In this document: positions 29,745-38,051 of the stretch, in pieces | Layout of the letters: every line of letters begins with the position of its first letter | Position numbering within the stretch: the stretch's first letter is position 1 | DNA from: a virus | Length of the DNA: 64,000 nucleotides | Virus record (IMG/VR): IMGVR_UViG_3300031578_000009 | Span: 31,690 to 95,689 of that record | Direction: 5' to 3' (one strand) | The notes under the pieces: model-generated | Seen by the model: only the letters and a program-made list of their open reading frames with translations | Told to the model about the DNA's origin: nothing | The model's database searches: none | Program-made: the position numbers and the translations under genes

Positions 29745-31051
29745 TTTATATGACGGAGCGTAAAACCAACTCATTACGAAGTGTGGGTTGGATGTAAGCG
29801 ACTCCTTTACACTCACATTTTGACATTTTGTTTGTTTTGTATAAATTGGCATAATTTTTGTAATATATAAACTATGTTTAAATCGTTCAAATACAGAATT
29901 TACCCAACCGAGCCACAAAAAGAGCTTATTGCCAAACATATTGGTAGTAGTCGTTTTGTGTTTAATCTTGCGTTGGAAACTAAAAACGCTGCATATATTG
30001 GTAACAAACATAACTACAGCCCTTTCGATTTAATTAAACAATTACCAGAACTTAAAAAAGAATGTCCTTGGCTAAAAGAAGTAAACTCACAAAGCTTACA
30101 ACAATCTATACAAAATATGGATATTGCTTTTAAGAAATTCTTTAAAGGAGCTGGTTTTCCAAAATTTAAGTCTAAAAGAGATAGACAATCTTTTTCAATA
30201 CCACAAAATGTAATAGTTGAAAATAATCTTTTGATAATACCAAAGTTTAAAGAGGGTATTAAAATATTTTTACATAAACCTACACAAGGTATTGTAAAAA
30301 GTGGAACTATCAGTGTAACACCTACAGGTAAATACTTCGTGTCAATACTTTGTGATACTAAAGAAGATATGCCAATTAAGGTTTCTATTAATGAAAACAC
30401 CACAATAGGTATTGACCTTGGAATAAAAGACTTTGCCATTACCTCAGATGGAGAGGTATTTGATAATCCTAAATTTCTTCGTAAAGCACAAAGTAAATTA
30501 AAATATGTACAACGTAAATACTCAAAACACAAAGGCAAGCGAACTAAAAAGAAACTTGCCAAATTACATGAAGATGTAGTAAACAAACGCAAAGATTTTT
30601 TACACAAAGTTTCAACTAAATTAATTCGTGAGAACCAAACGATAGCCCTTGAAACTTTAGCGGTTAAAAATATGGTTAAAAACCACAATTTAGCACAAGC
30701 AATTAATGATGTAAGTTGGTCAACTTTTGTTTCTATGTTGGAATATAAAGCTGGTTGGTATGGTAAAAATATCCTACGAATAGGACAATTTGCACCATCT
30801 TCAAAAACTTGTTCAAACTGTGGGGCTATCAACAATGAACTACAACTAAAAGACCGTGAATGGACTTGTGGCAGTTGTTCTACTGTTTTAGACCGAGATG
30901 TTAATGCTGCTTGTAACATAAAATCATTTGCTTTAAAAAATATTTTGTCTGGGGAACACAGACTTAAAAGTCAAGACGAACTGCCTACATTAGTAGGAGT
31001 AATGACTCTTGAAGCCAAACCCATCGCCTTTGGCGTGGGTGGGTAGTTCAC
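29745..31051 (+). mobile_element. IS200/IS605-family (IS1341-type, TnpB-only) element
   Basis: Left-end hairpin ccaactca...gtgggttgg (~29766-29791). Right-end hairpin acccatcgcc-ttt-ggcgtgggt ending GTAGTTCAC (31051). Inserted against the operon direction. Left boundary is approximate: TTTAT at 29734 or 29745. Confidence 0.8.
29874..31046 (+). CDS. tnpB: RNA-guided endonuclease TnpB
   Basis: KYRIYPT, RFVFN, RuvC D (GIDLG), E (ALETL), D (DRDVNAA) and Zn ribbon CSNC/CGSC, all intact. Confidence 0.95.
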   Translation: MFKSFKYRIYPTEPQKELIAKHIGSSRFVFNLALETKNAAYIGNKHNYSPFDLIKQLPELKKECPWLKEVNSQSLQQSIQNMDIAFKKFFKGAGFPKFKSKRDRQSFSIPQNVIVENNLLIIPKFKEGIKIFLHKPTQGIVKSGTISVTPTGKYFVSILCDTKEDMPIKVSINENTTIGIDLGIKDFAITSDGEVFDNPKFLRKAQSKLKYVQRKYSKHKGKRTKKKLAKLHEDVVNKRKDFLHKVSTKLIRENQTIALETLAVKNMVKNHNLAQAINDVSWSTFVSMLEYKAGWYGKNILRIGQFAPSSKTCSNCGAINNELQLKDREWTCGSCSTVLDRDVNAACNIKSFALKNILSGEHRLKSQDELPTLVGVMTLEAKPIAFGVGG

Positions 31052-31135
31052 TCTTCTATTATTAAATTAAAATTATATATACTTTCTTCTATTAATTTGA
31101 ACTGTTGTTCAACCCATAAGTCATAATCATCCCAA

Positions 31136-31477
31136 TCATTTGTCATATGCTTCTAAATATTCGTTAAAATGTTTTTTACAAAACCAAACTTTTTCTCCAT
31201 ATAATTCTCCACTATATTTAACTTTATTTCTACATGGTGAAAAATAGCATCTATGTTCTGGAACATTTAATCCTAATATTTTTGAATTATTATCAAATTT
31301 ATCTAATAATTCATCTTTTATATTTAAGATAGTAGCCCATTCTTCTGTTTCAAATTCTGTTAATGCATCAAAATTAATTGGTTTTTGTATTCCAGAAAGA
31401 ATATATTTAAAATAATTTCTGTTTTGAGCTAATTTTTGCTTATTTGTCATATCCATACTTTTTACGTAAACTTTCAA
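31136..31477 (-). CDS. Hypothetical protein with C-terminal Cys/His cluster
   Basis: CYFSPC...CKKH. Confidence 0.6.
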   Translation of the reverse strand: MKVYVKSMDMTNKQKLAQNRNYFKYILSGIQKPINFDALTEFETEEWATILNIKDELLDKFDNNSKILGLNVPEHRCYFSPCRNKVKYSGELYGEKVWFCKKHFNEYLEAYDK

Positions 31478-31673
31478 ATGCCTGATTTAACAATGCAAAA
31501 TCTTTTTCTTCATAAATAACCCTTAATCCACGTAAACTAATTCCATTAATATTCAAATCTATTATTGAATCTAAATAGTATTGAATAACTGGTAATCTAT
31601 GTTTGGCTAATTCTTCTGGATTATCAAACCAAGTATTATCTTTTAATTTTTTTACAAACTCTTGTCTATTCAT
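31440..31673 (-). CDS. Hypothetical protein
   Basis: ORF in the operon. Confidence 0.55.
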   Translation of the reverse strand: MNRQEFVKKLKDNTWFDNPEELAKHRLPVIQYYLDSIIDLNINGISLRGLRVIYEEKDFALLNQAFESLRKKYGYDK

Positions 31674-31983
31674 GTTTTACATATATATCAGAATCATCCT
31701 CTTTCTTAAATAATTTTACAAATTTATGTACATCTGAAGATCCAACATCTTGCAATTTTTCTGGGAATTCTTTTTTAAATGTATCTACCTATTTATTATG
31801 ACCAATTATTGATAATTCTTTAGTGTCATATAATTCCACTATAATCCAATTCCCATTATTATATTCTTTACTACATATTCCTGTTTCATATGGTTGATCG
31901 GAATCTGTTACTAATGCAGTATCAATTGTTACTCCATTAATTACATCATTTGCAACAACTCTATCTTTATAAGTTCCCATCAT
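31666..31983 (-). pseudogene. Hypothetical gene interrupted by an in-frame TAG at 31789-31791
   Basis: Frame continues 40 codons after the stop (GHNK*VDTFKKEFPEKLQDV...) and ends overlapping the next start codon. Confidence 0.55.
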
Positions 31984-32053
31984 TTCTAATTATGTCGTTG
32001 TAAATCATAGTAATAATGTTATTTATTACACATTAATGATGTTTATACAATAG

Positions 32054-32209
32054 TTATGTGGCATTAGGCTTCGGTGTATTTATTTCACGCACCATTTCCA
32101 TAATCTTTTCCATAACCTTTGGCACATACTTTTCACTACAAGTTGTTTCTAACCTAATTCCTGCACGTAATAATGGTGCTTCTACTGTAATTTTATATTT
32201 ATTGTTCAT
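32054..32209 (-). CDS. Cassette 1 ORF (51 aa, not in the ORF track)
   Basis: MNNKYKITVEAPLLRAGIRLETTCSEKYVPKVMEKIMEMVREINTPKPNAT. The stop codon is the complement of the GTTA core. Confidence 0.65.
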   Translation of the reverse strand: MNNKYKITVEAPLLRAGIRLETTCSEKYVPKVMEKIMEMVREINTPKPNAT

Positions 32210-32222
32210 AATTAATAACGCC

Positions 32223-32351
32223 ACATAACAATTTATAAAAAATAATAGCAGGTTATGTGGTACTTGTTAGCTGCTACCGCTGTATTTAAGTTTGTAATTA
32301 TTTCAAAGTGTCAGTTTCAAAGCTGCTACTATTCTTATAATAACGTTAGCG
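32223..32351 (+). other. attC1
   Basis: ACATAAC-aat-ttataaaaaataatagcag...ctgctactattcttataa-taac-GTTAGCG. Confidence 0.85.
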
Positions 32352-32561
32352 TTAATTGCTTTTAAACTTTGCGTACAATATTTCGTTGTAATGTCTATTA
32401 CATTCGTACTGATACACAAATTCACTATTATTTTTACACCACATAACGAAATCTATTGCTTCTTTTTGTAGCAACATATCGCTAACACCAGATAAAAACA
32501 ATTGCTTGTTGTATTCATCTATTGTGGTTTGTGCTTTTTTATAATCGTCTTCTGTTATCAT
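32352..32561 (-). CDS. Cassette 2 ORF
   Basis: 69 aa. Start codon lies inside the attC2 loop. Confidence 0.65.
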   Translation of the reverse strand: MITEDDYKKAQTTIDEYNKQLFLSGVSDMLLQKEAIDFVMWCKNNSEFVYQYECNRHYNEILYAKFKSN

Positions 32562-32609
32562 AATTTTGTTTATTAAATTCGCAACTGTGTTTATCTGTAA
32601 TCGTTATAC
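32480..32609 (+). other. attC2
   Basis: CGCTAAC-ac-cagataaaaacaattgc...gcaactgtgtttatctg-taatc-GTTATAC. Confidence 0.85.
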
Positions 32610-32846
32610 GCAAGCTAAAGAACCGAGCAACGTTTCAACCCATGCGTTTGAATCGGCACATCTTTTGAGTTCTTCTTTGTGCGTTTTTGCACAGTCGGTG
32701 CATACTGGTTGGTTTGTTCTCCAATGCCAAGTATTGGTAGGTTGCTTGCAAAAGTAGCAGCGTTCGTACACACCTGTATTTTCGTACATATCTTTAGTCT
32801 CTTTTACTGTTGGTATCATGATATCAAAATTAACGGGCGGTAACAA
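32604..32846 (-). CDS. Cassette 3 ORF, Zn-finger (CYFC...CTDC)
   Basis: Stop lies in the GTTA core. The true start is probably an internal Met. Confidence 0.6.
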   Translation of the reverse strand: MLPPVNFDIMIPTVKETKDMYENTGVYERCYFCKQPTNTWHWRTNQPVCTDCAKTHKEELKRCADSNAWVETLLGSLACV

Positions 32847-32965
32847 TGTATAAAAAACATAGCTGAGCCTGTGGTTAATATTAAGTTTCTATTTCAATTT
32901 TACATTTGTAAGTTATTGTTGTTCAGTATTTCAAAACGCTACGTTTCTTATACTCAACGTTATAG
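32838..32965 (+). other. attC3
   Basis: CGGTAAC-aat-gtataaaaaacatagc...gctacgtttcttatac-tcaac-GTTATAG. Confidence 0.85.
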
Positions 32966-33160
32966 GGCATTATTGCATTGGTCTAACGCATTTCTCATAT
33001 CCTCATCAGCAAGTTCTTTTAACTTATCAGCAATCATATATAAACCTTCTGGTCCATATTTATCTAACAATGCGTTAAAGTTAATTTCTTTATCAACGCA
33101 CTCTAACAAAGTATATAGTGCATTGCTGTCTTGTTTCAATTTATCATCTTCGTAAATCAT
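32960..33160 (-). CDS. Cassette 4 ORF
   Basis: Starts inside attC4 and stops in the GTTA core of attC3. Confidence 0.65.
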   Translation of the reverse strand: MIYEDDKLKQDSNALYTLLECVDKEINFNALLDKYGPEGLYMIADKLKELADEDMRNALDQCNNAL

Positions 33161-33220
33161 AATCTTTTGTATTTTAATTAATATTTGTGATGCAACGCAC
33201 CATATACTCAGCCGTTATGC
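33101..33220 (+). other. attC4
   Basis: CTCTAAC-aa-agtatatagtgcattgc...gcaacgcaccatatact-cagcc-GTTATGC. Confidence 0.85.
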
Positions 33221-33224
33221 GCAA

Positions 33225-33482
33225 TTATTCAGACGCTTCTTCCAAAAATGGATTGACATCTTCGCCAAGTTCTTTACTGCTATGCTTCATTAAAATTTTA
33301 ACAATATCCCCCTTGTTGATTCTTTTCAGGTTGTTAAATTCAGTGTATATTTCTTGGAGTATTACCTGAAATTCAGCATTGCAGTTGCGTATTCCAAATA
33401 AAATTCCATCATTATAACTGCCCATAACAGCACCTAAATCGCTATTGGCGGTTTCTTCTGTATTCAAATTTTCGTGTTCCAT
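33225..33482 (-). CDS. Cassette 5 ORF
   Basis: 85 aa. Starts inside attC5. Confidence 0.65.
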   Translation of the reverse strand: MEHENLNTEETANSDLGAVMGSYNDGILFGIRNCNAEFQVILQEIYTEFNNLKRINKGDIVKILMKHSSKELGEDVNPFLEEASE

Positions 33483-33553
33483 TGTTACTTTATTTTCATG
33501 TTGATAAATTGCGTTTCAAATCGCCAACAGCGTTTAGCTGCGGCACGTCATGG
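33422..33553 (+). other. attC5 (R' core mutated GTT>GTC)
   Basis: CCATAAC-agc-acctaaatcgctattggcg...cgccaacagcgtttagct-gcggcac-GTCATGG. Confidence 0.8.
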
Positions 33554-33588
33554 GCAAGTGTAAGAAATCCCACGCTCACCTGTTTAAA

Positions 33589-33759
33589 TTACTTGGTATC
33601 TGTGTATTTTACATCACCGTTTTCATCTATACTTCTTTCCACCCCATCCGAGTTCCTATCAACGATATTCCCCCACTCATCTTTTGATGTGTAAAAATCA
33701 GTATCTCTGCCGTAATATTCGGCTTCGGAAACAATGTTTCCCCATTCATCTTTTGGCAT
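33589..33759 (-). CDS. Cassette 6 ORF (56 aa, not in the ORF track) with duplicated KDEWGNIV motif
   Basis: MPKDEWGNIVSEAEYYGRDTDFYTSKDEWGNIVDRNSDGVERSIDENGDVKYTDTK. Confidence 0.65.
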   Translation of the reverse strand: MPKDEWGNIVSEAEYYGRDTDFYTSKDEWGNIVDRNSDGVERSIDENGDVKYTDTK

Positions 33760-33787
33760 ATTAAGCCCTCCTATTATAAACGCCAGC

Positions 33788-33915
33788 CCATAACACTAAA
33801 TATAAAATATACGGGTATTGTGCGTGTTTGAACGGTATTACCTTTAATCAAGTGTTGTGTATCGGGATAGGATACCGCTTTTAATCCCGTACATTTCATA
33901 TTTTTAACGTTATAC
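33788..33915 (+). other. attC6
   Basis: CCATAAC-act-aaatataaaatatacggg...cccgtacatttcatattt-ttaac-GTTATAC. Confidence 0.85.
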
Positions 33916-33921
33916 GCTATA

Positions 33922-34134
33922 CTAATTGACAATCGGATGTTCAATTACCTTATAACCCCAGTCAAGTAATATTTCTTTAACTACATACCATTCACCATTA
34001 AATTCCAGTGCATCAATCGTTGCTTGTGGTGCATCACTATGGAATATTACTTTTCTTTCGTTGATAGAATCATTGAAAGTACAGCGTATAACATCGTGTA
34101 TAGCACATTGCTTTTCGTTCTTCGCATTTTCCAT
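33922..34134 (-). CDS. Cassette 7 ORF
   Basis: 70 aa. Starts inside attC7. Confidence 0.65.
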   Translation of the reverse strand: MENAKNEKQCAIHDVIRCTFNDSINERKVIFHSDAPQATIDALEFNGEWYVVKEILLDWGYKVIEHPIVN

Positions 34135-34209
34135 TTTTAATATATTTTAAAGTTTGTAATTCTATTAAAGTTTTGTGTAAGCAATGTGCTATACACGTAT
34201 CCGTTAGGC
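34086..34209 (+). other. attC7
   Basis: GTATAAC-atc-gtgtatagcacattgctt...aagcaatgtgctatacac-gtatcc-GTTAGGC (perfect 18-bp arms). Confidence 0.9.
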
Positions 34210-34215
34210 GTAATG

Positions 34216-34428
34216 CTAAGAAAGCATCCACTTTAAAGCTTCTACTTTACCGTTGGCAATATTCATTCTATTTTGAACTTTGTCTCCATATTCAATACTT
34301 GCCATTTGGCTCATGTTACATAGTTCTTTGTTAAGTTTTTCAGCCAATAACTCTTGGTCTTTAATTTCAATCTTTATTTCTCTTTCTGTTTTCATAACAA
34401 TTTGAATTAAAGCACATACGCCTAACAA
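34216..34428 (-). CDS. Cassette 8 ORF
   Basis: Likely start at the internal MKTERE. C-terminal KVEALKWML. Confidence 0.6.
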   Translation of the reverse strand: MLGVCALIQIVMKTEREIKIEIKDQELLAEKLNKELCNMSQMASIEYGDKVQNRMNIANGKVEALKWMLS

Positions 34429-34549
34429 TATGTATAGTTAATGGCGGTTTTGTGCGTGGTTTAACATTTATTTTACCTTTTTATTTTTGTTTAGTTTGAT
34501 AGTTTTGTGGTCTTAAATCCGCCACGACACCTTACATTCAACGTTACCA
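34420..34549 (+). other. attC8
   Basis: GCCTAAC-aat-atgtatagttaatggcgg...ccgccacgacaccttacat-tcaac-GTTACCA. Confidence 0.85.
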
Positions 34550-34554
34550 CCCAT

Positions 34555-34884
34555 TTAAAGAGGGCGGTGCAAGTCTATGTTTATTGTAATGTAATGGAAA
34601 AAAGTTATCGTTATATAAGCATATCCTTTCATAAAGGAACGCCTGTAATTTATTAACGATACTTCTTTGTATTTACCACGTTTTTCTTCATCCTGTACAG
34701 GTGTCCTACGTTTTATCTTATAATACCATAAATACCAATCTACGCTGCTTTGTGTTTTCTCGAAATAGAATAAACGGGTGGTAACAATAGATAAAATCCA
34801 TTGCTTAAATTGTGTTAATTTATTGGTTTTCTGTTTCATATCAATATTATTTTTAGTTTGAAAATTTGTAATTCTAAATCGCAA
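34555..34884 (-). CDS. Cassette 9 ORF
   Basis: Probable start MKQKT at 34839, inside attC9. Confidence 0.6.
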   Translation of the reverse strand: MRFRITNFQTKNNIDMKQKTNKLTQFKQWILSIVTTRLFYFEKTQSSVDWYLWYYKIKRRTPVQDEEKRGKYKEVSLINYRRSFMKGYAYITITFFHYITINIDLHRPL

Positions 34885-34908
34885 CGTATCTTATCTGAGC
34901 CGTTAGCG
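34779..34908 (+). other. attC9
   Basis: TGGTAAC-aat-agataaaatccattgc...gcaacgtatcttatct-gagcc-GTTAGCG. Confidence 0.85.
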
Positions 34909-35094
34909 TTCATTTGCCAACGCACTCTTACGCACAATCGGAACTACTTTATACATAAAAGTTGCTCCACCTTGTTGCTGTATAAAATCATAACATTCTT
35001 GCTCTGTTCCTTCAAAGCATTCTTGTCCTTCGTCTGGTGTATAAACCAAATCTAATACTTGATGTGTTGCTTCCATTTTATTTAAGTTTTGCAC
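34903..35094 (-). CDS. Cassette 10 ORF
   Basis: Stop lies in the GTTA core. FEGTEQECYDF motif. Confidence 0.65.
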   Translation of the reverse strand: MQNLNKMEATHQVLDLVYTPDEGQECFEGTEQECYDFIQQQGGATFMYKVVPIVRKSALANER

Positions 35095-35114
35095 CGCCCA
35101 CGCTCAAAACGAAA

Positions 35115-35215
35115 CGCTAACAAGCGGTATAGTTAATAAAGGCTGAATTAAGTTTTATTCTTTGATTGGTCGGTAGTGGTCAGCCTTTACTAAACCATAC
35201 CGCCAGCCGTTATAA
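35115..35215 (+). other. attC10
   Basis: CGCTAAC-aag-cggtatagttaataaaggctga...tcagcctttactaaaccataccg-ccagcc-GTTATAA. Confidence 0.85.
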
Positions 35216-35428
35216 ACAAGGCGTAAGCAACGCCCATTTTGTACCGTCTATAAGGTCAGTATATCGCCCGTAAATCAACACTTCTTTCTTTGCAAGTTGT
35301 TCAGGTGGTGGATAAATTAATATTTCATCACCGTAGTTGGGTTTATCTTCTGGGAAAAACGCCCAGTTTATAACAAGCGGTAATACGGCATTGCCTTCCG
35401 CTTCATTGATACTTTTTTCTGTGTTCAT
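35210..35428 (-). CDS. Cassette 11 ORF
   Basis: Starts inside attC11 and stops in the GTTA core of attC10. Confidence 0.65.
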   Translation of the reverse strand: MNTEKSINEAEGNAVLPLVINWAFFPEDKPNYGDEILIYPPPEQLAKKEVLIYGRYTDLIDGTKWALLTPCL

Positions 35429-35501
35429 AGTTTTGTCCTCGTATTTAAGTTATTACTAATTTGATAAATCGGCAACGACCGCATACCGCCAGCCGTTAGC
35501 A
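35368..35501 (+). other. attC11
   Basis: TTATAAC-aag-cggtaatacggcattgcc...ggcaacgaccgcataccg-ccagcc-GTTAGCA. Confidence 0.85.
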
Positions 35502-35507
35502 CCAATA

Positions 35508-35744
35508 TTAAGGAAGTAACTCGCATTCATGAACTTCCCACCATTGATCATAATCAAATGGATATTCTTTTGCAGGAGGATATTCTTTGCATTCATTTTC
35601 CCACTCTTTTAGTTTTTCAGCCTTGTGAAATTCCATAGCCATTTCAGCACCTTTCTTTGTTTTGTGAATACTTATAGTAGTTGCTGCACTATCATGACAA
35701 TCTGAATTATAAAGAAACTCATATACAAATTCTAGTTTTTCCAT
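35508..35744 (-). CDS. Hypothetical protein (position of a 12th cassette lacking its own attC)
   Basis: Follows the R' of attC11. No matching GGTGCTAAC hairpin seen to its right. Confidence 0.65.
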   Translation of the reverse strand: MEKLEFVYEFLYNSDCHDSAATTISIHKTKKGAEMAMEFHKAEKLKEWENECKEYPPAKEYPFDYDQWWEVHECELLP

Positions 35745-35746
35745 AA

Positions 35747-35944
35747 TTAATTTTCTTTATCTAATTGATAATGCCAAAATAAATCACAAGATGTTCCTGT
35801 TAGCTTATTTATAAAAGGAGCTTCTATCCAAGATACAATAATAGATTTATTATTAACTCCTAATATAAATCTCTTACATATATCTCTTTTGGGACAGATT
35901 CCTCTATTCTTATGCTCTCCTGAACAAAGTGTAATATCTAACAT
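35747..35944 (-). CDS. Small Cys-rich phage protein
   Basis: DITLC.G..CP.R..C.RF motif. Confidence 0.65.
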   Translation of the reverse strand: MLDITLCSGEHKNRGICPKRDICKRFILGVNNKSIIVSWIEAPFINKLTGTSCDLFWHYQLDKEN

Positions 35945-36102
35945 AATTCACAATTTTAAAATTATATTCATACGTTTTTTCTTATTTAAGTTCCAATAAA
36001 ATATAAATATATTCCAATCATTAATCTCTATTCTAATCTGAAATATCTTAAAGATTGCAAATATAATTATTCCGAAGCTAATTAATAATAATTTTATTAA
36101 CA

Positions 36103-36453
36103 TTATTTATTCTTTTTAAGTAGTTTCCAATATTTATATAATTCTAAGAATGTTTTGCGTTTGATTTCATCTTCAATTTCAGATTTTGTTAATTCTGTTA
36201 CTTTTGAATTATTTTCTTCTATTTGTTTACTAATAACTTCTCCATGTAAATCTACAATATTTTGTATTTGATAGTGTAGTTTATGATGTAAGTCTAAACT
36301 AGAATTAATTTTTGAACTATATCTTATTTTCCCCATCCAATATTCATCTATTGTATAGCTTAAATTAATATAATCTGGTTTTTTTTCATTAGCTTGTTTA
36401 ATTAATTCAATATATTCTTTATTTTTTAATAAAATACAATTTTTATTTTCCAT
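36103..36453 (-). CDS. Hypothetical protein
   Basis: ORF coupled to the DnaB gene. Confidence 0.6.
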   Translation of the reverse strand: MENKNCILLKNKEYIELIKQANEKKPDYINLSYTIDEYWMGKIRYSSKINSSLDLHHKLHYQIQNIVDLHGEVISKQIEENNSKVTELTKSEIEDEIKRKTFLELYKYWKLLKKNK

Positions 36454-36454
36454 T

Positions 36455-37528
36455 TTAATTAATTTTTGTAAGTTTATTTATTGCTACATAATATTCAGGC
36501 TTCATATCATCAGCTTTAGGTAATTCTTTAATAATTCCAGATTCTCCTAAAAACATTGTACCTAATATTTTATCAGCAGCACCTTCTCTGTTTTTAAGTA
36601 TGCTAATAGCTCTAAATCTATCTCCAATTCCACCATCTCTCTTATTTATAAGATAGCCTCTAAAATTAGCAAGTTCATGTCTTTGTGGACTAAATATTGA
36701 TACTACATAATTAGCAGCATCAGTTGTATCACTTGTTTCTTTAAAATCATCAAGAGTTGGCGTAACTGCATCTAGTTTCATTCTATCTGTTGAACCTATT
36801 CCTCTATTTAATTGTTGAACATTTACAAATGAAACTCCAAACATATCTCTTAAATCAATCTGATAAGACATATATTTATCAATATTCTCTTTCTTAGAAA
36901 AACCTCTTTCTCTTTTGATAATTCCTAAATGGTCTGATGCAACTACTACTAATTGTTTTTTATGTGGTTTATAATAATCAAATACTTCTTTTTCTCCATC
37001 ATGAGCTTGTACTGTTTTAGTATAAGTCGTACCATTATCATTAATATACCTTAATACAGTATTCCTAATTCCAGTAGGATTTTCATTGCTAAATACTTCT
37101 ATATATTCTGACATTTGTTCAAAATATTTAGCTAGAGTTTTAGTTTTTTCATAAATTTCTTTAGAAACTCTATTTTTACCTCTTGATAATATATAATTAG
37201 TATCTGCAATAATACCATAATCTAAATAAAGTTTTCTTGCGATAGCTCTAACTCCAAGAGCAGGTTTACTCATCTCTGCACTATATATAAAGATTTTGAG
37301 ATTCATTGAGTCTTTATAATTCTTTATATAGTCTTCATAAGGAGTATATATGAAATTATTTATAACAAACATTGACTTTCCTGAACCCGTGCTACCACCA
37401 CATAAATAAATATTTCCTGGTTGTAGTCCTGGTATATATTCTTGTAATCTTTCTAGTCCTAAATTTAAGCCATTATTCTCACCCTTAATACCAGATTCTA
37501 TTTCTTGCAATCCTAGGTTAAATATCAT
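36455..37528 (-). CDS. dnaB: DnaB-like replicative helicase
   Basis: GGSTGSGKS, SAEM, DHLG, QQLNR and LKNREG motifs. Confidence 0.88.
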   Translation of the reverse strand: MIFNLGLQEIESGIKGENNGLNLGLERLQEYIPGLQPGNIYLCGGSTGSGKSMFVINNFIYTPYEDYIKNYKDSMNLKIFIYSAEMSKPALGVRAIARKLYLDYGIIADTNYILSRGKNRVSKEIYEKTKTLAKYFEQMSEYIEVFSNENPTGIRNTVLRYINDNGTTYTKTVQAHDGEKEVFDYYKPHKKQLVVVASDHLGIIKRERGFSKKENIDKYMSYQIDLRDMFGVSFVNVQQLNRGIGSTDRMKLDAVTPTLDDFKETSDTTDAANYVVSIFSPQRHELANFRGYLINKRDGGIGDRFRAISILKNREGAADKILGTMFLGESGIIKELPKADDMKPEYYVAINKLTKIN

Positions 37529-38051
37529 CTGAAAAATCTTTTATATCGTTAGTTTCTAGTTCTCCAATATATCCTTGGAATTTAGTTTCATTCATAAGCG
37601 TTTCTATTCTAAGGTATTGTCTCATTTTAGGGTCATTTACCCAATGAGAATATTTTAAATCAATAACATCTTTTAAGTCTTGAACAGAATATTCTTTTAA
37701 TCTTGCTGATATAAATTTTCTATTAGAAACCGATTTATTTGATACTCTTAACTTACCTGTTTTTTGTTTGAAGTAATTAATAACTTCAACAACATCATCA
37801 ACTGTATATTCTGTATCATTTAAATAATCAATAATAGATAATTTTCTAATCTCAAAAGAATTATAATCAATCTTATCATCTATTATCTTTAAAATCATAT
37901 TCCGTTCAAGAAACTTAGCCATTATAAATATATCTGATACTTTATTAAGTTCAGACAGATATTCATTATTTTTATTATGTATAGCTTTAAGTAAACAAAT
38001 TAGAGATGGAGATAGTTTTAATTCTTGTAGATCTTTAATTGCTATTTCCAT
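37518..38051 (-). CDS. Replication initiator/replisome organiser-like protein (phage conserved C-terminal domain)
   Basis: I.ARL.E.YS..DLK.VID.K...W..D..M..YLR.ETL...KF..Y, directly upstream of the helicase. Confidence 0.75.
   Translation of the reverse strand: MEIAIKDLQELKLSPSLICLLKAIHNKNNEYLSELNKVSDIFIMAKFLERNMILKIIDDKIDYNSFEIRKLSIIDYLNDTEYTVDDVVEVINYFKQKTGKLRVSNKSVSNRKFISARLKEYSVQDLKDVIDLKYSHWVNDPKMRQYLRIETLMNETKFQGYIGELETNDIKDFSDDI

Follow-up and report, generated by a model that had tools for sequence, protein, structure and literature searches.

Integron-type cassettes in a soil phage: hairpin sites placed 5' of the gene, with candidate start codons in their loops

The 64,000-nucleotide (nt) stretch of DNA analysed here, hereafter the window, spans positions 31,690 to 95,689 of the IMG/VR record IMGVR_UViG_3300031578_000009, a complete soil phage genome of 95.7 kb with direct terminal repeats. 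It contains an array of 11 small units, each composed of an open reading frame (ORF) and a hairpin similar to the attC recombination sites of integrons, and six of the ORFs open with an ATG located inside a hairpin loop. We consider it probable that the phage carries integron-type cassettes based on a site family of Bacteroidota, with the gene on the strand opposite to that used in bacterial cassettes, the hairpin placed 5' of its own gene and, in six units, the start codon in the hairpin loop.

The cassette array and its hairpin family

Read along the plus strand, each unit ends in TAAC-NN-stem-loop-stem-NNNN(N)-GTTA, with a stem of about 17-19 nt and an A-rich loop of about 60-75 nt; the hairpin sites are 95-128 nt long, the cassettes measure 255-362 nt, and all 11 ORFs are on the minus (bottom) strand (Table 1). 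The array opens with a bare G↓TTA (32053), without a preceding hairpin, and closes with a complete hairpin site. The region at 32-36 kb is also distinct in composition, with a G+C content of 32-35% in an AT-rich window of about 26%. Sites were called with a covariance model of our own; the model was built from an alignment of the 11 window sites and 70 relatives (81 sites), and it finds exactly 11 sites in the window, all within 32223-35501. With these 11 sites, and no tyrosine recombinase found in the complete 95.7 kb genome, the array is a cluster of attC sites without integrase (CALIN; at least two attC sites and no nearby integron integrase).

The anatomy of the sites is directly observed in the alignment. 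TAAC and GTTA are invariant in 81/81 aligned sites and compensatory changes are found at 15 of the 21 stem pairs, so that the sites, like attC, are imperfect palindromes whose outer boxes end in AAC and begin with GTT and whose inner stems (17-19 bp) covary. The conserved extrahelical bases of attC sites are replaced here by other features: no consistent bulge appears in the consensus of the 81 sites, which has instead an asymmetric internal loop (2 nt versus 4-5 nt) and fixed G.T pairs. Two G.U pairs are near-invariant (alignment columns 27/142 in 75/81 sites and 8/158 in 78/81) and form only on the ORF-sense strand, the opposite strand having A.C mismatches at these positions; the ORF-sense strand therefore folds better. 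This is the case for the DNA fold in 10 of the 11 window sites, and in the six sites tested as RNA the z-score was always lower for the sense strand (-1.5 to -7.0).

For scans of IMG/VR and of genome contigs, a single degenerate pattern taken from four window sites was used. At least 120 IMG/VR contigs match it, almost all with true hairpins and many of them in arrays, as do at least 120 genome contigs, nearly all from Bacteroidota and allies (Winogradskyella, Psychroserpens, Polaribacter, Maribacter, Flavobacterium, Prolixibacteraceae, Ignavibacteriota and Chlorobiota). A search of Rfam gave no match. Short and long forms of the site coexist in arrays, as illustrated by window site 10 and by a 55-nt site in viral contig L040 (near 10900 in sense coordinates), which conserves the same boxes and stem around a 5-nt loop and lies ahead of a methylase with its own start.

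Table 1. Positions in the window of the array, its hairpin sites and ORFs, and neighbouring genes
Feature	Position	Strand	Remarks
Array of 11 integron-style gene cassettes	32053..35498	.	G+C 32-35%, about 26% in flanks
Site 1	32226..32348	+	TAAC..GTTA; no ORF start in loop
Site 2	32483..32606	+	loop contains ATG 32561
Site 3	32842..32962	+	loop without ORF start
Site 4	33104..33217	+	loop contains ATG 33160; arms 33110-33126/33192-33208
Site 5	33425..33550	+	core variant GTCA at 33547; loop contains ATG 33482
Site 6	33791..33912	+	loop without ORF start
Site 7	34089..34206	+	perfect 19-bp stem, arms 34095-34113/34179-34197; loop contains ATG 34134
Site 8	34423..34546	+	loop without ATG-started ORF
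Site 9	34782..34905	+	loop contains ATG 34839
Site 10	35118..35212	+	short 95-nt form; loop without ORF start
Site 11	35371..35498	+	loop contains ATG 35428; moves together with ORF 35210-35428 (seen in another contig)
Cassette 1 ORF	32054..32209	-	start just outside site 1; stop is core TAA
Cassette 2 ORF, 69 aa	32352..32561	-	loop start; leader MITEDDYKKAQ..QL also present on six other, unrelated proteins
Cassette 3 ORF, CxxC..CxxC motifs	32604..32819	-	start outside site 3; stop is core TAA
Cassette 4 ORF, 66 aa	32960..33160	-	loop start; stop is core TAA
Cassette 5 ORF, 85 aa	33225..33482	-	loop start
Cassette 6 ORF	33589..33759	-	start outside site 6
Cassette 7 ORF, 70 aa	33922..34134	-	loop start
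Cassette 8 ORF	34216..34395	-	ATG outside site 8
Cassette 9 ORF, 94 aa from ATG	34555..34839	-	loop start
Cassette 10 ORF	34903..35076	-	start outside site 10; stop is core TAA
Cassette 11 ORF, 72 aa	35210..35428	-	loop start; stop is core TAA; homologues conserved from VINW onward
TnpB/IS605 OrfB-type gene	29874-31046	+	1 kb from array, amid minus-strand phage genes
DnaB-like helicase gene	36455-37528		array flank

Candidate start codons, stop codons and leaders

A first-pass annotation of this DNA had placed six ORF starts inside attC loops and five stops in the core, and had quoted a leader peptide for each loop start. These readings hold: the six ATGs are all enclosed by the stem arms of sites 2, 4, 5, 7, 9 and 11, the stops of cassettes 1, 3, 4, 10 and 11 are the TTA of G↓TTA, complementary to the core, and the quoted leaders are real translations. 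Since two phases are used to read GCAAT, a motif conserved in the arm, the leaders are of two frames (KQ.. and NA..). The other five ORFs begin 17-45 nt outside their own site.

The coupling between sites and reading frames is observed in a sample of 143 inter-site bodies from matched viral contigs, among the matches listed, of which 125 have a long ORF on the ORF-sense strand and 97 of these a clear ORF. In 58 of the 97 cassettes, the loop has an ATG whose reading frame stays open through the 3' arm and the inner box and is that of the downstream ORF, the other two frames accounting for 8 and 7. At the other end, the core TAA is in phase with 66 ORFs, when about 32 would be expected; of the 97, 27 stop on it and 52 more within 15 nt. 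On account of this frame coupling and core phase, loop starts and core stops are selected features, and a chance extension of the ORFs into the sites was rejected on the frame coupling (58 versus 8 and 7). Loop starts are, in addition, a trait of the phage cassette pool, since a loop-ATG ORF of at least 45 aa leaving through the box is present in 183/276 viral sites (66%) and in only 9/132 bacterial ones (7%).

Among ORFs stopping before the core (window 32053-35498 and loci L007-L126), 39/70 are still in phase with the core TAA, 23 being expected; these early stops look like tandem in-frame stops or recently shortened ORFs.

Regarding the origin of the leaders, three observations support the site, rather than the protein, as their source. 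Firstly, the leader MIT(E)x(E/D)Y..A(Q/K)..(I/V)D.Y..QL is common to seven cassettes on seven contigs and is followed by unrelated bodies; in this MITE family, variation by codon position is 67/36/71, the second position varying half as often. Secondly, homologues of the cassette 11 protein are invariant from VINW on (codons GTT ATA AAC, the inner box), and are preceded by leaders of about 18 to 70 residues that differ in sequence. Thirdly, a C5 methylase that in contig L114 is in frame from a loop ATG begins in L040 as MKILNLYAGIGG, with its own ATG behind the short 55-nt hairpin. In related phage arrays, N6/N4, C5 and MT-A70 methylases begin in hairpin loops. Thus, the first-pass proposal that attC supplies the start and some 18-25 residues would stand as to the provenance of the leader and needs correction as to its length, which is 15-26 residues, with initiation at the loop ATG being suggested by the frame coupling. 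The same annotation also raised the possibility that the mRNA hairpin regulates initiation and that captured DNA is turned into genes.

A cassette 11 homologue in L259 and two further results weigh against the reading proposed here. The L259 gene (1150-1618) has no detectable hairpin and yet keeps the 3'-arm codons, NNVVLPF-VINW, in a longer N-terminus of 47 residues; it may represent a cassette that lost its 5' arm and with it its mobility. In unrelated loops, variation by codon position (28/25/19) is not significant, so that most leader peptides may be under little selection at the protein level. Finally, an in-frame NTG-TTA is found at the inner box of about 40% of the loop-start units, whose real start could then be the ATG, GTG or TTG of the box. 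Among the sequencing runs listed as containing the array, none is of RNA.

These data lead to the strongest alternative, according to which the loop ATGs are unused, true starts lie at the inner-box NTG or inside the cargo, and the long ORFs are upstream extensions produced by ORF calling. It would agree with the methylase's own ATG in L040 and with the ATG-TTA of the box in L114, which is in frame and from which the methylase could start, with the 5/11 window ORFs that start outside their own site, with the differing leaders of homologues, and with the weak general codon-position signal. However, it leaves without explanation the preference of open loop ATGs for the ORF frame, their disparity between phage and bacterial contigs that share the same site family, and the constrained second codon position of the MITE leaders. 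Moreover, GTT is itself a codon in 28/51 loop-start units, which puts the box NTG out of frame there, and in the ORFs of cassettes 4, 7, 9 and 11 the box is followed by a long run of codons without any ATG. We therefore regard this alternative as unlikely.

In the direction of the gene, each mobile unit is organised as C-hairpin-ORF-TAA, so that the gene has its own hairpin at its 5' end. If the loop ATGs of six units are used, translation would start within the A-rich loop and reach the cargo by way of the 3' stem arm and the inner GTTA box. Its end would be the TAA that constitutes the last triplet of the cassette, or a stop in phase shortly ahead of this TAA. Bacteroidota initiate translation in a Shine-Dalgarno-poor manner, for which a single-stranded, A-rich loop would be suitable. 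The site would thus act as a portable translation-start module adding a leader to its cargo, each cassette being a self-contained translation unit, and the overlap between site and gene would account for the small size of the cassettes.

The mobile unit, its orientation and its proposed recombination

The assignment of hairpins to ORFs was ambiguous at first, because the inverted repeats flanking each ORF body fit either neighbouring hairpin. In all 11 cassettes, the first 10 nt complement the 10 nt before their own TAAC at 5-9 of 10 positions, compared with 1-7 for the next cassette; as in attC cassettes, the bases after G↓TT complement those before the cassette's own R'' box, which is consistent with a circular intermediate. 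When near-identical hairpins on different contigs are compared, the flank downstream in the ORF sense is co-conserved in 10/10 informative pairs and the upstream flank is never the sole one conserved, and homology in cassette alignments spans from the outer TAAC of the hairpin to the next TAAC. Window cassette 11 (site 11 and its ORF) recurs, about 95-96% identical, on JGI contig L258, bounded by TAAC..TAAC and amid unrelated flanks; no relatives of it were found in the viral scan. In contigs from other metagenomes, similarity to the window sets in exactly at 33909, 34542 and 35209 and extends into the ATG-bearing hairpin. Taking into account the hairpin-pair flanks, the L258 copy, these match starts and the bare G↓TTA at the beginning of the array, the mobile unit is C-hairpin-ORF-TAA, and the hairpin with the ATG is in the same unit as the ORF, as implied by the earlier statement that ORFs begin in their own attC. 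Nucleotide and protein clustering of cassette bodies yielded too few close pairs to decide ownership, and the joints in matching metagenome contigs were set aside, being mostly due to cross-mapping between hairpins.

Phage and bacterial cassettes differ in orientation. ORFs are on the top strand in 26 and on the bottom strand in 4 of the bodies from bacterial contigs, a small sample of 30, whereas in viral contigs the figures are 18 and 125. The arrangement expected of attC cassettes, a top-strand ORF followed by the site on its 3' side, is accordingly that of 26/30 bacterial bodies, and is absent from 11/11 window ORFs and 125/143 viral units. The top strand is defined by bacterial contig L183, in which a recombinase gene (55-1389) is directly followed by ORF-site-ORF-site on one strand with stops in TAAC, a canonical layout that identifies TAACA..CGTTA as the top strand.

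An Xer/IntI-like recombinase is present in the five bacterial genomes searched (5/5). In four of them it is on the same contig as the hairpin sites and on the same strand as TAACA..CGTTA, with the sites on its 3' side; in two of these four the sites are 50-120 kb from it, a distance that leaves adjacency not established and hints at very large chromosomal arrays. Against the integron-integrase model (IntI, TIGR02249) the bacterial recombinase scores 193 bits, below the cut-off of 265, and its match is split between model positions 1-184 and 239-315; the family it matches best is NF040815, with 211 against a cut-off of 220. The unmatched stretch, at about 185-238, is presumably the IntI-specific domain that reads extrahelical bases, and this would fit the absence of such bases in the hairpin sites. 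The recombinases on array-bearing Bacteroidota contigs (L183:55-1389; G003:C3:24089-24907; G004:C2:2024434-2025252; G005:C1:1401383-1402174) are open frames of 372-449 aa that all lack the middle of the integron-integrase model, that of L183 carrying an N-terminal extension of about 170 aa.

Among phages, a 170 kb record (G006/L020) encodes, directly next to its array, a recombinase of 36% identity, which matches TIGR02249 in the same manner as the bacterial copies, with a score below the cut-off. In this record (L020:5470-7193) the array ends with a loop-start methylase cassette, followed on the same strand by the Xer/IntI-like recombinase gene, and it may represent a complete phage-borne system. 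No recombinase was found in three other complete phage records carrying arrays. Homology blocks that end at the cores would be indirectly consistent with recombination at G↓TT by an integron integrase, and it is proposed that the cassettes would be moved by an Xer/IntI-like tyrosine recombinase, of host or phage origin, cutting G↓TT on the folded strand. As the window phage itself lacks a tyrosine recombinase, which counts against this proposal, recombination in its array is inferred from its relatives.

That lack, shared with the three other complete array-bearing records, would also be explained if the phage hairpins were regulatory RNA stem-loops (mRNA stabilisers, terminators or start-presenting structures), shuffled by homologous recombination as in T4-type phages, and not recombinase sites. 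The conserved G.U pairs suit an RNA fold on the mRNA strand, as do the sense-strand z-scores given above, and near-identical hairpins adjoin unrelated flanks on both sides. Nevertheless, the shared blocks end exactly at the invariant TAAC/GTTA cores, the unit ends are complementary, as expected of a circular intermediate, and the same family is arrayed beside Xer/IntI-like recombinases in Bacteroidota and in one phage; in addition, a role as RNA is compatible with a role as site and is not an alternative to it. Purely regulatory stem-loops are thus very improbable.

Even harder to sustain is the canonical integron polarity, in which each hairpin would belong to the ORF ending at its TAAC, and the six ORFs would start in the site of the preceding cassette and span the crossover: along the ORF, a stop in TAAC followed by a hairpin does resemble the usual ORF-attC order, the arm closer to the ORF stop is 2-3 nt longer, as the R''-L'' arm is in classical attC sites, and the cassette 11 homologues are conserved exactly from the inner GTTA onward, but the flank so predicted is co-conserved in 0/10 informative pairs, the shared blocks are delimited by the outer TAAC of the hairpin and the TAAC that comes next, a bare G↓TTA start with a full hairpin end fits only the other polarity, the phase of the box relative to the ORF is split 28/21/2, so that shuffling would break half of the ORFs, and recombinase-adjacent bacterial arrays fix TAACA..CGTTA as the coding (top) strand. 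This polarity was rejected as contradicted by the hairpin-pair flanks and the TAAC-to-TAAC blocks.

With regard to the surroundings of the array, every gene at 13-52 kb of the window is on the minus strand, the plus-strand TnpB/IS605 OrfB-type gene standing amid them. A blastn search of 31000-37600 against GenBank phages returned a single 79-nt match, and the relatives of the DnaB-like neighbour are only 33% identical, offering no usable synteny. Searches of the cassette ORFs in Pfam and PHROGs assigned no function. The gene at 35508-35744 is about 87% identical to a contig from another metagenome, the match (window 35495-35744) beginning exactly at 35495, the last G↓TTA; this phage gene may be a recurrent landing site of arrays, or itself a decayed cassette.

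Relation to known cassette systems and significance

Integron-type attC clusters without integrase, with methylase cargo, have been described in virulent phages (Qi et al. 2023, PMC9892861). The present array resembles them in its one-gene units, imperfect palindromes, AAC/GTT cores, complementary unit ends and lack of a phage integrase, and the related phage arrays also in their DNA methylase cargo (PMC9892861). Unlike in those clusters and in integron cassettes in general, the genes here are on the folding (bottom) strand, the site is at the 5' end of the gene and contains its presumed start, the stems are of 17-19 bp without consistent extrahelical bases, and the recombinases associated with the sites do not reach the integron-integrase cut-off. 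The present hairpin family has no site in Polaribacter phage P12002L, a phage of that study.

In class 1 integrons, the attI1-encoded ORF-11 and ORF-18, together with short ORFs within attC, provide a precedent (reviewed in PMC8876359), in that a recombination site gives initiation signals and sometimes N-terminal residues, and the core gives a stop codon. In that case, the top strand carries the signal, which is provided by the attI of the platform or the attC of the cassette before, and translational coupling is its main mode of action (PMC8876359). The cassettes studied here would hold instead their own start in their own site, on the opposite strand, with the site-encoded residues fused to the cargo.

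The inverted cassettes of Vibrio are a minority and have their own promoters, and to our knowledge no overlap between start and site has been described for them. Those found in sedentary chromosomal integrons, e.g., Vibrio toxin-antitoxin cassettes (PMC13108822, PMC11023631), are similar to the present ones in having the ORF antisense to the attC top strand and an expression independent of the platform promoter. Unlike in Vibrio, inversion is the rule in the phage contigs analysed here (125/143), and the predicted start is in the site loop.

In the hyperplastic regions of T4-type phages, small unrelated proteins share a short N-terminal capsid-targeting leader, and stem-loops flank shuffled genes. 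The short leader shared by unrelated small proteins and the flanking stem-loops are reminiscent of that situation, but the boundaries here coincide exactly with the core sites of a family of recombinase type, which host chromosomes also contain, and no promoter or protease-site evidence was found in these arrays. In the literature, no description was found of inverted phage cassettes with a start codon in the site loop. IntegronFinder 2.0 detected almost no integrons in Bacteroidetes (PMC9024848); standard integron tools rely on extrahelical bases and on the IntI-specific domain, and they probably miss part of this family.

The contrast in polarity between phages and hosts suggests two cassette pools served by one recombination system. 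A cassette moved between phage and host arrays would be antisense, and hence silent, in the recipient. It is conceivable, if rather doubtful, that phages and their Bacteroidota hosts share one site family in opposite polarity precisely in this manner, with exchanged cassettes being silent and the phage site loop acting as a universal start module. If this were true, silencing would shield phages from the defence cassettes of hosts, and hosts from the anti-defence cassettes of phages, and the phage site loop could graft a start codon and a leader onto any captured reading frame. These cassettes bear on the origin of integron cassettes and on the translation of promoterless ones, and the annotation of genes in such phage arrays would need starts placed inside hairpins. 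In sum, these phage cassettes form a large pool, hitherto overlooked, in which the recombination site would also encode the beginning of its cargo.

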